The position numbers and the translations under genes are program-made. Positions 22,847 to 60,107 of a stretch of 64,000 nt of DNA are shown one piece after another. The notes under the pieces are model-generated. The model made no database searches, was not told the origin of the DNA, and worked only from the letters and a program-made list of their open reading frames with translations. Each line of letters opens with the position of its first letter. Position 1 is the first letter of the stretch. This stretch comes from Candidatus Hydrogenedentota bacterium. GTDB taxonomy: Bacteria; Hydrogenedentota; Hydrogenedentia; Hydrogenedentales; SLHB01. The stretch is taken from the NCBI GenBank assembly GCA_963745075.1, contig CAVUWV010000001.1:320001-384000 (forward strand), given 5' to 3'.

Positions 22847-23498
22847 GCCCCGAAGGGGCTTTAACATGACAGCCTAGGGCAACGCCCTGGGATCCGAATC
22901 GTCTCTCTTTGTAAGCCCTGAAAGGGCGAAACAGGAGCAATCAGATGGCGCAATCCCTGTCAATGAACCTACTCCATCTCATCTACAGCACCAAAAACCG
23001 CGAAGCCTGCCTCACCGACGAAATCCGCCCAAAACTCTTCGCATACCAATCGGGTATTCTCAAAGAATTGGACAGCGCCGCTATCGTTATTGGTGGCACA
23101 GAAGACCATCTTCATGCGCTGTTCACGTTGTCGAAGACCCGCGCCTTGTGCGATGTCGTCGAGGAGGTGAAAAAGGGATCGTCCAAATGGCTCAAAACCC
23201 AGGGCTCGGAATTCGCCGGCTTCCATTGGCAAAACGGCTATGGTGCATTCTCCTTGAGCGAGTCTCACGTGGCCAAGGCCCGCCGTTACATTGAAAGGCA
23301 AGAAGAACACCACCGCACGCTGACGTTCCAGGAAGGATTCCGTTTGTTTCTGAAACGGTATCGCATTGAATATGACGAACGTTACGTCTGGGACTGACGC
23401 CCTGTCCTGCCCTTTCAGGGCGATCACCATGGGGGTGCCGTTATCCCAGGGCGTTGCCCTGGGCTGCCATGACTTGGCCCTTCGGGCCTGAAAGGCCC
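22847..23498 (+). mobile_element. IS200-type / REP-associated HUH transposase element with about 80-bp inverted three-hairpin ends
   Basis: Left end gccccgaaggggc..cctagggcaacgccctggg..gccctgaaagggc (22847-22927) is inverted at 23409-23498. Confidence 0.8.
22945..23397 (+). CDS. tnpA: IS200/IS605-family Y1 HUH transposase TnpA
   Basis: HLIYSTKNR, DHLH (HUH), KKGSSKW, FHWQNGYGAFS, catalytic YIERQEEHH, DERYVWD. Confidence 0.93.
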   Translation: MAQSLSMNLLHLIYSTKNREACLTDEIRPKLFAYQSGILKELDSAAIVIGGTEDHLHALFTLSKTRALCDVVEEVKKGSSKWLKTQGSEFAGFHWQNGYGAFSLSESHVAKARRYIERQEEHHRTLTFQEGFRLFLKRYRIEYDERYVWD

Positions 23499-48931: not shown

Positions 48932-49021
48932 TCTTGTTGATGCGGCTTGGACACGGCAGTCTGCTCCGCTGGTCTTGCTGGGCCGGAACACACCGTGCAC
49001 GGCTCCTCCGCAGGCTTCCGT

Positions 49022-49804
49022 TCAACTGAGCAGATATTTGGTCAGGTGGTCCCACGCGTTCGTCTGCGCCACACGCATGATGAGGAAACTCCAGACGACA
49101 AGTACGGCGTATCCCGTGGCGTAGTATCGGTCCCAGGACCGCGTCAGCAACCGCTTGACGACAAGGAACACCAATCCCAAAACCAGCACGCCAAAGAACG
49201 GACCGAACAGGGCGCCGCACAGGGTGCCCGCGTAGAGGTTTCTAATCGCTTCGACGCGGTCCGTGGCGGCGGGGATGGCAGCCATGGTGGCCAACAGCAT
49301 CATGGGGCGATGGATCTTCACCCGCTTTCGGTTCCACACGCCGACGAAGACGAAAGCGCCGAAAAGCAGGATGCTGAAGAGCGGGACCGCCAGAAAACGG
49401 TTGGGTTCGAGATTCCACAGTTTGAGGTCCGGCGGGTTGACGCTCGCCGCCGCAAAGGCCACTTTGAGGCCCGCCAGCACGATGCCGGCCGCGAGCACCG
49501 CCCCAACACGGCCGGCCATCATATGAACGCGCCGGTTCCCGGTGACCACCAGGAGCGGCTGGGCCAGGAACAACAGCATCCAAGCCGTCATCGCGATCCC
49601 GTGGAGGATCAGCCAGATTCGAATGGGCGGAGTGAGTTCCCGATGGGGGAATGCCTTGCCGTGCAGATAAAACTGCTGGAAACCCAGGAACATGATCGTC
49701 AGGAGCAGCAAGGCCGCTCCCGTGTAAAAGTAACGTCCGAAATCGATCTTTGCATGCGTCTTCGGTTGGGGTTCGTCCAATGATAAGGTCTGGCTCGTGC
49801 CCAT
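49022..49804 (-). CDS. Hypothetical multi-pass membrane protein with conserved His residues
   Basis: HG...AW..L...Q..L, R.H...G and HR..MLLA motifs; 7 TM segments. Confidence 0.7.
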   Translation of the reverse strand: MGTSQTLSLDEPQPKTHAKIDFGRYFYTGAALLLLTIMFLGFQQFYLHGKAFPHRELTPPIRIWLILHGIAMTAWMLLFLAQPLLVVTGNRRVHMMAGRVGAVLAAGIVLAGLKVAFAAASVNPPDLKLWNLEPNRFLAVPLFSILLFGAFVFVGVWNRKRVKIHRPMMLLATMAAIPAATDRVEAIRNLYAGTLCGALFGPFFGVLVLGLVFLVVKRLLTRSWDRYYATGYAVLVVWSFLIMRVAQTNAWDHLTKYLLS

Positions 49805-49939
49805 GATTTGACAGTTCCTCTTTGTTTGAATGTGGCGCTCAACGCGCTCGATCCCCGGACCGGATCGGGGATCGATTCACCAGAAGCGCAGATAGTACTC
49901 CAAGTCATTTGAGAAAAGGTAGCGGAATCTCAAGCGTTT

Positions 49940-50015
49940 CGTCCGTCTCGTCCCTGCCATCCCCGTCCCTGCTGCCCCTGCTGTCCGTGTAGGTCCGTGT
50001 AGGTCCGTGTAGGTC
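49940..50015 (+). repeat. gtccct / gtccgtgtag simple repeats
   Basis: gtccgtgtaggtccgtgtaggtccgtgtaggtc. Confidence 0.75.
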
Positions 50016-50089
50016 AAGTCCGCGTTCCATTGTTTCATTTCCCTCCGCACTGCAACGCCCCGGCCTATCTTTATAAGGAGATTTCCGCC

Positions 50090-51672
50090 ATGACAAACCA
50101 CCCCAAACGCCCCCGCCCTCAAAAACGAACGAATCTCGGCACCCCCTGCGCCCGCACCTGGACCAACGACTGGATCGCCACCGTCAACGCCAAAGAAGCC
50201 GGAACTCAACCACCGAATCTGCGGCGCCCGCCTCCCCGACGCCACGCCCGTTGCACCAATGCTTCCGACCACCCCTCCGGCCGCTGCCCATTCCACGGCG
50301 GATTCGACCTCACCGGCGCACCCCCCGGCAACCGCAACCACGTAATCCACGGCCTCTACTCCCGCCGCCTGAGACCCTGCACCCCCAACTGCCCCCACTG
50401 GGAAAATTGCCCCCTCGCCAACCGTCATCCTCATCCTCTCGAACGCGGGGAACACGGGGACCCATCTTCTCTCCAGCCTTCTACAAATCCACAATCGGAA
50501 GACCCATCTTCGCAATCCCAAACGTCCGATCCGACCGATCGGTGCGATCCGTCCCATTCTTCCCAACCCCCAAACCCCACACCCCCGCAACAGGATCGTC
50601 ATCCTCGCGACAGCGGGGACCCATCTTCCCAATCCGATCCGTCCAATTCTTCCGATCCGTCCTATAGGTCCCATACGTCCTATAGGTCCTATCCCCCCAA
50701 CGCCACGCCGACGCAATCACCGCCCACCTGCCCCTACCAACTCGCCGAATACAACACCGTCCTCACCGACGCCCTTGCCGTCGTCGAATCCCAGCCCCAC
50801 CCCAACCCCATGGGCATCCACGCCGCCCACAACGTCGCCATGCTCCAAGTCCTCGTCAACGCCGCCACCGCCCACTTAGCGCAAGCCCCAAACCTCGGGT
50901 CTTCCTCTGAAGCATGGCCTTCCCCCCCTGGGCACGGGCGTCCCGCCCGTGTTCTTCCTCTTCATCCGCGACATGGGCTTCAAGCCCATGTCCTCCCGAA
51001 AACCTTAACCCCAACACCATCCTCGCCTTCACCCGCCTCATGCGCGAGTACCGCCACACACTAAAACTTCTCCAAACACCGGGGTACACCCCCTTGAACC
51101 GTCACAATTCCGCGGGTGCACCCCCCTCCCCCGACGGCATCCTCCGCCACGTCCAACGCACCCAACACGACACCGGTCTCGACCCCGATTCCATCGCCGC
51201 CGCTCAACTCGAGCCCCAAACCCCCGAGACCCACGCCAAAGCCTACATCCAACGCGCCGCCCTCGCCGGAGGACAAGGTCGCGACGTGGAAATGTGCGAA
51301 GCCTTCGATAACGCCGCCCTCATCGACGAACCCTACGCCGAATCCGAACGCGATCACGTCCTGGCCAGCTACCGCCCCGCAAAACAATCCGTCTCCCAAG
51401 AACTCGCCGAACTCATCCTCGGCAACCTTCATCTGCCGCCCCGACCCACAACCCACGAACAGAACCCCGACACAACCAAGCCCAACACCGACCACCCAAC
51501 AAACGAAGAATCCGACGATGTGCTCCAACACTTCCTCGACCTCATAAGAGAAGGGAAAATGCCCCCCGAAGCCTTCCCCATCGGCTCCCCCCTCCGAGCC
51601 CACGTTGAAGCCATCTACACCGGCCCACCCACCACCACAACCAAGCCCACCGGCGAAGCCGGCTCCGAGTAG
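50090..51672 (+). CDS. HGGxSTG-like zinc-finger protein, terminase small subunit-like; frameshifted and REP-interrupted
   Basis: AAGGAG RBS; correcting two local indels gives ICGARLPDATPC...GRCPFHGG; then GAPPGNRNHVIHGLYS, a TerS-type motif; frame change at about 50900-51000 inside a REP-like insert. Confidence 0.6.
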
Positions 51673-51679
51673 TCCTTAT

Positions 51680-51826
51680 CCGTCCATATCGTCCGTGTAA
51701 GTCCGTGTAAGTCCGTGTAAGTCCGTGTAAGTCCGTGTAGCCCAGTTGTAGCGCAGGCGTCCCCGCCTGCAATTCCTGAGACAGAACCCCAAAGAATGCA
51801 GGCGGGGACGCCTGCGCTACATCCGC
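51680..51826. repeat. gtccgtgtaa x5 followed by a GTAG REP doublet
   Basis: gtagcgcaggcgtccccgcctgca ... tgcaggcggggacgcctgcgctac. Confidence 0.8.
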
Positions 51827-51959
51827 CGCTCAACCCCGGAGTGAACCCCCAAAAATGCTGCGCACCCCCAACCACCTATCGTCCTCCCCCTACTACCCAC
51901 CAAAGCTCAATAACGCAAGCAGGCTTGCCTCGCCGAAGCTGACAAGCGAAGGCGGGTCC

Positions 51960-53490
51960 ATGTGTCCGTCCATCCCATCCCGCACCCGCTTCGCCCGCCA
52001 CTACCTCCGCGACCGCCACGGTTCCCCCTGGGCGCCTTGGCCGTATCAGTCTTTGTCCTTGGAATCCCTCGCACCTCGGAAGGTGCATTGCGATGGGCGG
52101 GATGTGGGGAAAACGTCGGAGATCGAGATCGTGGCGGCGTGGGCGTCGGTGATGCGGCCGAATTCGCAGATGTTGATTGCGACGCAGTGTGAGAATCATT
52201 TGTTTCCGTTGATGGACCGGATCGTGCGGGTGTTTGAAAGCGATTCATGGAAAGAGGGACAGACCGGTCTCGACGGAATGAAAGAGGGCAATGAAAGAGG
52301 GACATGGGCGTGGAAAAGAGGGACAGACACGTCTCGCTTCGCTCGCTTGCGTCAGTCCCTCTTTTCCGGTCGCTGGGGTCAGTCCCTTGGTGGAGGTGAA
52401 GCGGACGCCGTCGTGGTGTTTGCGGTTTGCGAACGGGTTTGTGTTGTGGGGGCGGATTGCGGGGCCGCACGGGATGAATTTCCAGGGGCTGCACGTGGAT
52501 TGGCAGATTGTCGACGAGGCGCAGGAGATGACGGATGCGGCGTGGGAGGAGATGTTTCAGGCGTTGAACGCCGGCGGGTGGCGCTGGGTGTATGGGGTGC
52601 CGAACGGGTTGCGGAACACGTTTCACCGGATGACGACGGACCCGGACGCGGAGCAGTACAACTGGCCGTCGTCGTCGAATCCGGCGTGGTCGGCGGAGAA
52701 GGAGGCGGAGTTGGCGCGGCTGTATGGCGGCAAGGATTCGCCGGGGTACATCCATCGGGTGCTGGGGCAACACGGTTCGCCGGCGTATGCGGTGTTCGAT
52801 CTGAATGCGTATCTCGCGTGTGTGGACGGGGGGCTGGAGTGGTTCGAGGCGTCGCTGGGGGAGGACGATCCCTTCGAGGCACCGTCGGGCGTGGCGAAGG
52901 GCACCCATTATCTGGGCTGCGACCTGGGGTACGTGCGCGATCCGTCGGAGTTTGTGATCTACCGGAGTGCGCCGCCGGATTTGGTGAACGTGGGGCGGGT
53001 ACACTTGCACGGGGTCAATTATCATCGGCAGCAGGGCATCATCGAGGAGTTGGATCGCGCGTATGACTTCCGGGCGATCGGCATCGATGCGGGGAACAAC
53101 GGGAGCGCGGTGGCGCATAACCTGAAGAACATCGACGTGGACTGGCATGAGAAGGTCATGGCGTTCGAGTTCGGGGGCGTATGCGAAGCGGGGTCGTTTC
53201 CGGACGGGTCGCCGGACCGGCGTCCGACGAAGCTGTTCATGACGGAGCTGTTGCAGCGGCGGATGGCGGACCGGACGATTGTGTTTCCGCCGCCGGCGGA
53301 TCGGGAGTCGCAGTACGCGGGGCACACGTATACCGCCGGGATGCGGGGGCAGGTCCTGTTCGACAAGGGGAACGACCACATTATCGACGCGGATCGGTGC
53401 GCGGTGCTGGCGCATTACCTCGACACGCAGGAGGTGGGGGCGCAGAACGTCGGTGGGTACTATCCCCGTCTCCGGTTGGAGGCGTTTTAG
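51960..53490 (+). CDS. Phage terminase large subunit-like protein (ATPase plus RNase H nuclease); 1-nt frameshift near 52385 and a palindromic insert
   Basis: PWPYQ (adenine-binding Q), GRDVGKT (Walker A), QIVDEAQ (Walker B), GVPNG (motif III-like), YLGCDLG, GIDA and NDHIIDA nuclease aspartates. Confidence 0.8.
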
Positions 53491-53633
53491 TGTTGCAAGT
53501 TGGCGAATCCCTTACAATTCAATCGAAATCGAAATCGAAATCGAATTGCAAAGGCAACGTGTCTGCGATTTCGATCCCGATTTCGGCAGCGGCGAGACTG
53601 GCATGCTGCGCAGTCAGGAGCGCGCGGCGCAAC

Positions 53634-53879
53634 TTACGTATCGGACGTGACATTTTCGCGCCAGCGCGCTTCAATCGTGTCAGCGGAAAGATCGGCCCCG
53701 CACCGCCACTCGACATAGTAGCTCCCGTTGCGAACCTGGGAAAACTCGACCCAGTTTCGCAACGGCACAAAGGCCGGCGATTCGAAATACGGGCGAACAT
53801 CGAAGATGCCGGAGCGGCCGTCTTCGGCGACCACATGCAGCGTGCCGTTTTCCTGTGGAGTGACCGTTGCGATTCTCAC
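53634..53879 (-). CDS. DUF2442 putative antitoxin
   Basis: DG.SG.FD..PY...F.PL...F..V...VEW..GADL..DTI; GTGA overlap with DUF4160. Confidence 0.8.
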   Translation of the reverse strand: MRIATVTPQENGTLHVVAEDGRSGIFDVRPYFESPAFVPLRNWVEFSQVRNGSYYVEWRCGADLSADTIEARWRENVTSDT

Positions 53880-54148
53880 TGATCCAATCCTCGAATAGGC
53901 AAGGGATTCTGGCCGTTTACAGCCAGTTCCCAATCCGCCATCAAGTCTTCCTGATGAATCTCGATCCAGGCGACCACCAGTTTATGCTTCTTCGGCGGCA
54001 GACTACCTGCCAACACGCTTCCGTCCGCAATCGAATACACGGCGACCTCGCCCTGATAGTCCGCATGAATGTGTGGCAAGTGATGTCTGTCTGTGTCGTG
54101 AAAGAACATTCGGATCAAAATGCCGTAGAACATCGATATCGTAGGCAT
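53876..54148 (-). CDS. DUF4160 putative toxin
   Basis: MPTISMFYGILIRM...HHLPHIHA.Y...WIEIH..DLMADW. Confidence 0.88.
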   Translation of the reverse strand: MPTISMFYGILIRMFFHDTDRHHLPHIHADYQGEVAVYSIADGSVLAGSLPPKKHKLVVAWIEIHQEDLMADWELAVNGQNPLPIRGLDQ

Positions 54149-54325
54149 GCGACCTGCTCCTGTTTCTCACGGCGCCCAGAGATGACCGATGTATCCAGTT
54201 TTCTCGGAGCAACGGCCATCCATAGCTTACGCAGTCATTATTCCACGTCAATCGCGCCCCGGTCTACCTCGTCCGTGGTAGTTTCCACGGGGGCCGCCTC
54301 CCCTACTTGCGCCGCCGTCTCGCCG

Positions 54326-60031: not shown

Positions 60032-60107
60032 GGGGATGTAGCTCAGTTGGGAGAGCGCTTGTCTGGCAGACAAGAGGTCAGGGGTTCGATTCCCCTCATC
60101 TCCACCA
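60032..60107 (+). tRNA. tRNA-Ala(GGC)
   Basis: GGGGATG...CATCTCC-ACCA acceptor with G3:U70; anticodon stem cttgt/acaag, loop ctGGCag; GGTTCGA T-loop; 76 nt. Confidence 0.97.

Follow-up and report, generated by a model that had tools for sequence, protein, structure and literature searches.

What is a phage terminase doing in a bacterial chromosome when no phage surrounds it? The question is raised by a stretch of 64,000 nucleotides (the window) from a Candidatus Hydrogenedentota bacterium, in which two terminase-like genes, both frameshifted as assembled, together span positions 50090..53490. The window is G000:C1:320001-384000, where G000 is the window genome (6.8 Mb, 36 contigs), other G numbers are related Hydrogenedentota genomes, C is a contig and L a locus; the comparison sets comprised 135 genomes of the phylum and 54 of the same family. 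All named homologues come from Candidatus Hydrogenedentes/Hydrogenedentota. An earlier note on this DNA had described an orphan terminase module, and had proposed either a prophage relic or a domesticated packaging module akin to a gene transfer agent (GTA), to lateral transduction or to anti-phage interference. The answer favoured here, tentatively and with a little less than even confidence, is read from comparative sequence data: the pair would be one copy of a mobile, integrase-less, pac-type terminase cassette that parasitises a domesticated, phage-derived particle of its host. Among the earlier proposals, the lateral-transduction-like one comes closest, in our analysis, to this reading. 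No published account of such a system was found in the open-access literature on Hydrogenedentota terminases, GTAs, HGGxSTG, and GC skew or break-induced replication.

The terminase pair and the particle genes of the host

The downstream gene, TerL-B (51855..53490, + strand), carries the full ATPase and nuclease motif set that the earlier note had reported: WPYQ (52038-52049), GRDVGKT (52095-52115), IVDEAQ (52507-52524), GCDLG (52915-52929) and DHIIDA (53374-53391). Walker A, Walker B, the coupling motif and the acidic nuclease residues are all present in the window, over two frames, and in every TerL-B copy that covers them. The C-terminal frame matches the terminase large subunit family PHROG 2 (E 2.8e-15), as does an intact copy from G106 (E 1.9e-20); judged by its ATPase and RNase H-like nuclease motifs, the window gene thus qualifies as a phage large terminase. 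The best match among solved structures is PDB 4zni (E 3.6e-7), which we take to be the TerL of Thermus phage P74-26. Pfam returned no family for either gene of the pair, and the expected HGGxSTG and Terminase_6/6C did not appear in the four frames tested.

TerL-B differs from the resident large terminase of these bacteria. G000 carries three TerL genes, namely an intact one on C8 (TerL-A) and the window and C24 copies (TerL-B). In quick trees of 43 and 39 rows, TerL-B forms a separate clade of 11 rows (SH-aLRT 100). It is full-length in 10 of the 54 family genomes, at 78-96% identity to the window copy, and each of these also retains TerL-A; fragments occur in G109 and G110, and there is usually one TerL-B per genome. 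Identity to TerL-A is about 70%, while the other TerLs of these genomes reach 34-45% and the nearest viral TerL only 37%. Both quick trees nest TerL-B inside TerL-A, beside genus g18, a placement that was not adopted, as the approximately unbiased (AU) test does not reject TerL-A as one clade (p 0.52); TerL-B may therefore have a separate phage origin, as sister to all TerL-A. The dN/dS of TerL-B is 0.065-0.32 (14 pairs; upper bounds, as strand skew saturates dS in this clade) and that of TerL-A 0.03-0.14. TerL-B is thus under purifying selection, as the earlier note had suspected, and in nine other genomes its matched part contains no stop. Between G000 and G106, dN is 0.036 for TerL-B versus 0.129 for TerL-A, which suggests exchange.

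Which particle could such an enzyme fill? TerL-A is matched in 124 of the 135 phylum genomes, and a single portal match is found in each of 117, all TerL-B carriers included; in G000, C8:467-472 kb contains the genes for the portal and the major capsid protein. (The protease-position gene of this cluster appears split over two frames in the assembly.) Judged from this distribution, portal and TerL-A are vertically kept, single-copy host particle genes of the kind that defines a GTA, and the window pair is not. The proposal of a domesticated, GTA-like module therefore suits the host's TerL-A and not the pair itself, which is patchy, multicopy and site-variable. Likewise, the pair is an orphan within the window only, since the genome has three TerL genes, four TerS-like genes, and portal and major capsid genes on C8.

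The upstream gene, HGG-B (50090..51672, + strand), encodes a TerS-like zinc-finger protein on an extremely C-rich coding strand, with CPFHGG (50285-50302), GAPPGNRN (50315-50338) and HGLYS (50348-50362) in place as the earlier note had said. HGG-B proteins measure 420-580 aa and their genes have a four-fold-site skew of -0.57 to -0.77; HGG-A proteins measure 300-450 aa and are mostly unskewed. The HGG family is matched in 33/135 genomes, often many times per genome (at most the best 12 candidates per genome were scored). Three of the four HGG-B genes of G000 are broken and a 3'-end relic lies on C12/C35; copies in congeners are mostly open, with repeats inserted in frame within linkers. Their dN/dS is 0.31-0.72, with dS saturated. 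HGG-B is co-oriented with TerL-B in the window and in G106:C42, fused to it in a single 947-aa open reading frame (ORF) in G095:C5, divergent from it in G000:C24, G096, G082 and G099, and also found alone, apart from TerL-B.

Several lines of evidence point to a small terminase. Intact HGG-B relatives give weak matches to TerS families (PHROG 1889 and 9231, E about 1e-3). Among 28 viral loci that share the N-terminal motif, 21 have a long downstream ORF, and TerL was recognised in 19 of the 20 scanned; all 11 viral proteins with the HGG motif that were scanned match TerS families. HGG-B thus combines, as far as sequence can tell, an N-terminal DNA-binding module with a position upstream of TerL, the positional support being strong. 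A structural model (pLDDT 78.7; an earlier AlphaFold model was poor, at pLDDT 44) has a helical hairpin core, and the nearest named cluster in the Atlas is Terminase_4 at 0.79, which serves as a lead only. Single-protein searches of viral contigs gave no match. A relationship between the HGG profile and the gene upstream of TerL-A was considered and dropped (probability 2.8%). HGG-A is multicopy in many more genomes (L073-L078, L017, L018), some copies (L074, L076, L078) standing at upward skew steps.

The pair was earlier described as two co-oriented genes; the orientation holds, and as assembled neither gene is an intact reading frame. Relative to its paralogues the TerS-like gene has three small indels (+1 near 50201, +2 near 50246-50250, -1 near 50930), so that its first zinc-finger Cys is out of frame. 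TerL-B is split out of frame by a 151-nt hairpin insert (52236..52386, + strand); the same loop holds an out-of-frame insert of 146 nt in the C24 copy and in-frame inserts in G107 (66 nt) and G109 (108 nt), 27 copies having none. The G000 assembly itself is indel-prone, because ordinary genes look broken too: 20/103 orthologue-like genes in a loose protein test against congener ORFs, and 8/57 in a stricter DNA test against G106 (16 clustered events in 69 kb, or 0.23 frameshifts/kb). On the window TerL branch there are 8 nonsynonymous to 14 synonymous changes, four of the former in one badly aligned patch. The window copy was, on this evidence, probably under selection until recently, and would now be either intact (assembly indels) or freshly broken. 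A search for the source reads found none: the 12 sequencing runs listed each have a share below 0.1, none with RNA, and contigs from four sequencing runs, tried as a check on the frameshifts, turned out to be from relatives and not from the source genome.

Motifs P and M and the mobility of the cassette

Two short motifs tie the cassette to the particle and to the chromosome. Motif P (50049..50082, + strand), a putative promoter just upstream of HGG-B, consists of TGCAAC, about 12 nucleotides, an AT-rich box and a ribosome-binding site, and was scored with a matrix built from 16 copies outside G000 (strong cut-off, a score of 21 or more). It matches upstream of HGG-B copies, before the portal gene (score 15.8) and within the capsid cluster (23.1). 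In family-f1 genomes, 16/26 P-like sites before the gene preceding TerL-A outscore 99% of random windows, and weaker sites of this kind precede the divergent TerL-B copies. P is a promoter-like motif common to the cassette and the host particle genes. Among the 31 strong matches in G000, four stand before HGG-B, 21 have the second motif, M, within 400 nt, and six are others (one of them in the capsid cluster). The 21 P+M miniatures contain no gene, and some occupy the same site in G000 and G106. A strict P pattern, tried for counting across the phylum, proved too narrow (8/54). Near-identical P-like sites also precede a duplicated ORF (MPAVVERKPG...) beside IS200-type genes at G000:C20:222844 and C24:16096.

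Motif M, CCCCCTTGWHYCGTCAMAA, is a 19-bp sequence inside the TerS-like ORF (51089..51107, + strand), with 37 copies in G000, often in tandem. The codons it retains are otherwise avoided in HGG-B genes: Leu TTG is used at M in 13/14 copies versus 23/472 elsewhere, and Arg CGT in 13/13 versus 44/367, so that M is conserved at the DNA level. It is a candidate pac-like signal. M occurs in 14/135 phylum genomes with 1-80 copies (genera g1, g2, g14 and g18; none for the reversed control), among them all TerL-B carriers; these represent four lineages at most, as kin are not independent. A fixed hairpin at M was considered and rejected, the structure being inconsistent across the 37 copies and the sequence being what is conserved. 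Viral contigs gave a single match to M, in an unrelated context, and an Rfam search nothing above chance.

The cassette is not fixed in place. It sits with its cargo in a variable island (48950..54325, approximate ends) that is missing at the GDPD-ABC junction of three congeners, where 0.6 kb (G105, G107) or 1.6 kb (G106, with other REP/IS200 content; REP, repetitive extragenic palindrome) separates the flanks. Conversely, G106 and G107 carry HGG-B and the membrane-protein gene at a site empty in G000, and their further HGG-B sites are empty or hold only a relic there. That membrane-protein gene (49022..49804, - strand) travels with the cassette: its 83% DNA matches adjoin HGG-B in G106:C1 and TerL-B in G107:C475, at another host site. 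G098, a 95% complete genome whose genus includes four carriers, has neither M nor HGG nor TerL-B. The cassette is therefore best described, from these comparisons, as a mobile accessory that moves between chromosome sites and is multicopy, patchy and site-variable. No integrase or clear target duplication was found at cassette sites, where four filled/empty junctions were read by eye, their ends masked by REP-like repeats.

The remaining island content is a DUF4160/DUF2442 toxin-antitoxin-like pair (53634..54148, - strand; PF13711 E 1.8e-24, PF10387 E 4.8e-10) and, between the two terminase genes, a 10-nt microrepeat with a 25-bp perfect hairpin (51691..51821). The latter, presumably a GTAG-type REP-like element, is a genome-wide repeat with about 40 blastn matches at 36 loci. 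Across genomes the cargo of TerL-B loci includes toxin-antitoxin and defence-like genes, some between the two terminase genes. Upstream of HGG-B copies (L003:10700-14600, L001:10200-14300, L066:6700-8950) lie AT-richer FRG/PDC-S15 cargo and polarised repeat arrays, with genes that we take to be HEPN-like and RES-like. The neighbours (membrane protein, DUF2442/DUF4160 pair, sugar ABC genes) are as first described, and the statement that the 64 kb hold no portal, capsid or integrase was borne out among the 48 window ORFs scanned. TerL was the sole match to a head or packaging family, and one host GDPD matches a tail-fibre family through its phosphodiesterase domain. Elsewhere in the window, an IS200-family (Y1) transposase gene (22945-23394) is followed by a 54-bp tandem array of seven copies (to 23845); a gene 69-76% similar to it sits between the two terminase genes in G106. 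A tRNA-Ala(GGC) gene (60032-60107) lies 5.7 kb from the island, and no link between the two was found.

Strand skew and the competing explanations

The long-range mark of the cassette is a strand skew. Nowhere in G000 is it longer or stronger than in the four HGG-B and two TerL-B copies; in the window, the TerL-B coding strand is C-rich over its first 100 nt and G-rich thereafter. Host genes 3-100 kb downstream of the element have G-rich four-fold sites on the element's sense strand (+0.11 to +0.15, with p<=0.001 at a null sd of 0.03). With genes in both orientations, the step over 17 M loci is 0.124, versus a null of 0.001 +/- 0.03; loci with REP hairpins, taken as a control, jump by 0.025 and show no step. 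The downstream skew is positive at 20/23 loci in G000 and flat within 70 kb upstream. In G095, G096 and G106 an upward step occurs at 8/8 evaluable M sites, one of only 0.003, three more having no flank. Where filled and empty orthologous sites could be compared, the flanks flip as predicted, on both sides, at 3/5.

Other skews were seen alongside. Along G000 the GC skew follows a saw-tooth that rises in many steps, at intervals of about 200 kb; the steps at C10:389 kb, C18:24 kb, C1:58 kb and C8:454 kb are without M, and dnaA (C36:54 kb) has no skew step. At C8:469-472 kb (L079:13962-17355), the coding strands of the portal and scaffold-position genes show a strong excess of C (-0.6 to -0.7). 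The four-fold skew of TerL-A is -0.8 in G109/G110 (L036, L058) and +0.85 in G034 (L046), and that of a distant TerL in G078 (L055) is -0.76, the skewed zone stopping directly past TerL in G110 and G078.

How might a parasitic cassette produce such a pattern? The particle genes would be switched on through P, and the cassette induced together with them. The HGG-B zinc-finger small terminase would bind M within its own gene; TerL-B would then cut, and fill host capsids directionally from M, which would favour the cassette's own neighbourhood, while the miniatures would be non-autonomous starts, at which packaging depends on proteins supplied in trans. With repeated rounds of cutting, packaging and recombination from M, or of cut-primed replication, one strand would be exposed and the skew would build. 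New sites could be acquired through illegitimate insertion or with the help of REP/IS200 elements. GTAs are considered vulnerable to cheating genes, which would favour their own packaging. The wider conjecture, which is possible but rather doubtful, is of a GTA drive: a selfish, sequence-specific terminase, with signals resembling miniature inverted-repeat transposable elements (MITEs) in the chromosomes of four genera, would redirect a random-packaging particle to 1-80 fixed starts and rewrite strand composition over about 100 kb downstream, giving a saw-tooth like that of multiple origins. The cassette is a candidate GTA cheat for which a protein can be named, along with a site of 19 bp and a footprint in the genome. 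An element this small that alters the strand composition of a chromosome over a long range would also mislead the prediction of origins from GC skew.

A number of observations weigh against the parasitic cassette. The skew pivots at the 3' end of HGG-B, 0.6-1 kb beyond M, and has the opposite sign within that gene, so that a simple pac model does not account for the skew. In G000 the bin from -100 to -70 kb is also positive (p 0.04); in G095, G096 and G106 the flank effect looks two-sided and not downstream only; two of the five filled/empty sites are without effect, control stretches of C24 having one-way biases of comparable size (up to 168:279); two further sites in G082 shift only gradually; and several strong steps have neither M nor P. 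The TerS assignment depends on a motif of 50 residues, on position and on a single fusion, Foldseek found no fold match for the HGG-B model, and M is missing from the wider HGG-A subfamily (8 genes checked). Lastly, the window cassette has four indels in 3.1 kb, for which the background rate predicts fewer than one.

Could M instead be a local replication start, the zinc-finger protein being an initiator or nicking factor from which run-off replication proceeds downstream, with TerL-B packaging the amplified DNA or being a passenger? The origin-like polarity and the 100-kb reach of the skew would suit it, as would the iteron-like tandem copies of M, the missing step at dnaA, and the fact that M is found no more than 3 kb away from three of the ten largest upward steps (within 6 kb, 4% would be expected); a coupling of run-off replication to a GTA is described for one system (PMC2697382). 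We nevertheless hold it unlikely, as no similarity to Rep, helicase or primase rises above noise (one PHROG replication match, E 0.08), the viral relatives of the HGG motif are TerS, and a conserved TerL-B accompanies the element. Somewhat less probable still is a second, site-specific terminase kept by the host, whose scattered M sites would aim the particle at chosen regions for the host's benefit. Purifying selection, the shared motif P, the usual single TerL-B per genome and the miniatures at common sites in G000 and G106 agree with it, and one treatment of phage packaging allows that host pac-like sites may be selected (PMC11260489); patchiness over four genera, gain and loss among congeners, M copy numbers from 1 to 80, toxin-antitoxin and defence-like cargo between the genes, and the low G000-G106 dN of TerL-B that suggests exchange do not.

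The dense REP-like repeats around the loci, in-frame repeats that fill protein linkers, the IS200-type gene that separates the pair in G106, and 16 Y1_Tnp matches in G000 would fit passengers of the REP/IS200 family (REP-associated tyrosine transposases, RAYTs), copied around REP-rich hot spots and skewed by transcription or single-strand exposure without any packaging role. This is improbable, since REP-hairpin loci have no skew step, M is conserved at synonymous sites, and TerL-B keeps all its catalytic motifs under selection. Decaying remnants of related prophages, the relic of the earlier note, fare even worse and can be considered largely refuted by dN/dS and context, although frameshifts affect both window genes as well as the C24 copy, breaks are seen in 3/4 of the HGG-B copies of G000, C12/C35 carries a 3'-end relic, and the AU test allows TerL-B as sister to all TerL-A. 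The 87 ORFs from 10 TerL-B loci gave no portal, capsid or integrase, and 11 loci are without head, tail or integrase gene. Moreover, dN/dS is well under 1, TerL-B is free of stops over its matched part in nine other genomes, viral contigs hold no close relative, and 8/57 ordinary genes of this assembly are frameshifted as well. Satellites do interfere with the packaging of their helpers and the cargo includes defence-like genes, but a decoy terminase directed against phages is scarcely credible: PADLOC had no match for HGG-B or TerL-B, the catalytic motifs are intact, and a decoy predicts neither a cis motif nor flank skew.

Comparison with known packaging systems

The parasitic cassette can finally be set beside systems already described. 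With headful (pac-type) phage terminases it shares the TerL motif set and the N-terminal HGG/GAPxGN module of TerS (PHROG 1889, 9231), and its DNA-conserved motif lies inside the TerS-like gene, much as P22 pac lies within terS in the treatment that also has host pac-like sites directing packaging downstream (PMC11260489). Unlike those terminases, it has no phage around it and several copies per chromosome, and HGG-B, at 420-580 aa, ends in a long, unmatched helical tail.

MITE/REPIN-type elements are short, internally deleted derivatives that keep the cis signals of a larger element. The miniatures are likewise short derivatives with kept signals, but these are a promoter-like and an internal motif, not ends, and what the parent encodes is a terminase instead of a transposase.

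GTAs such as RcGTA and BaGTA resemble what the host would provide through a single-copy portal/capsid cluster and a detached TerL-A, both kept phylum-wide. The skewed setting is also reminiscent of GTA genes reported elsewhere in extreme GC skew regions (PMC9836097), and in Bartonella run-off replication is described as coupled to the GTA (PMC2697382). In contrast to the scattered zinc-finger TerS-like gene and candidate site found here, the TerS of RcGTA is described as having no specific DNA-binding domain, in an account that knew of no GTA packaging start site in 2019 (PMC6854486).

A further parallel is with lateral transduction and with phage-inducible chromosomal islands (PICIs), including the Staphylococcus aureus pathogenicity islands (SaPIs), for which one account describes in situ packaging from the island's own pac (PMC12829572). 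As is proposed for the cassette, an own TerS redirects borrowed capsids and packaging runs in situ downstream of pac; defence-like cargo is carried in both cases (PMC12829572). Unlike a PICI, the cassette has no integrase, excisionase, att sites, or Rep or primase module among the 135 ORFs scanned at 11 loci, where one primase/helicase gene lies 4.7 kb past TerL-B in G106 only; its presumed helper is a single-copy host cluster and not a phage, and it brings its own TerL and gene-less miniatures. On this comparison, the cassette would work like a packaging-redirecting satellite, yet it stands outside the PICIs and is not the GTA itself.

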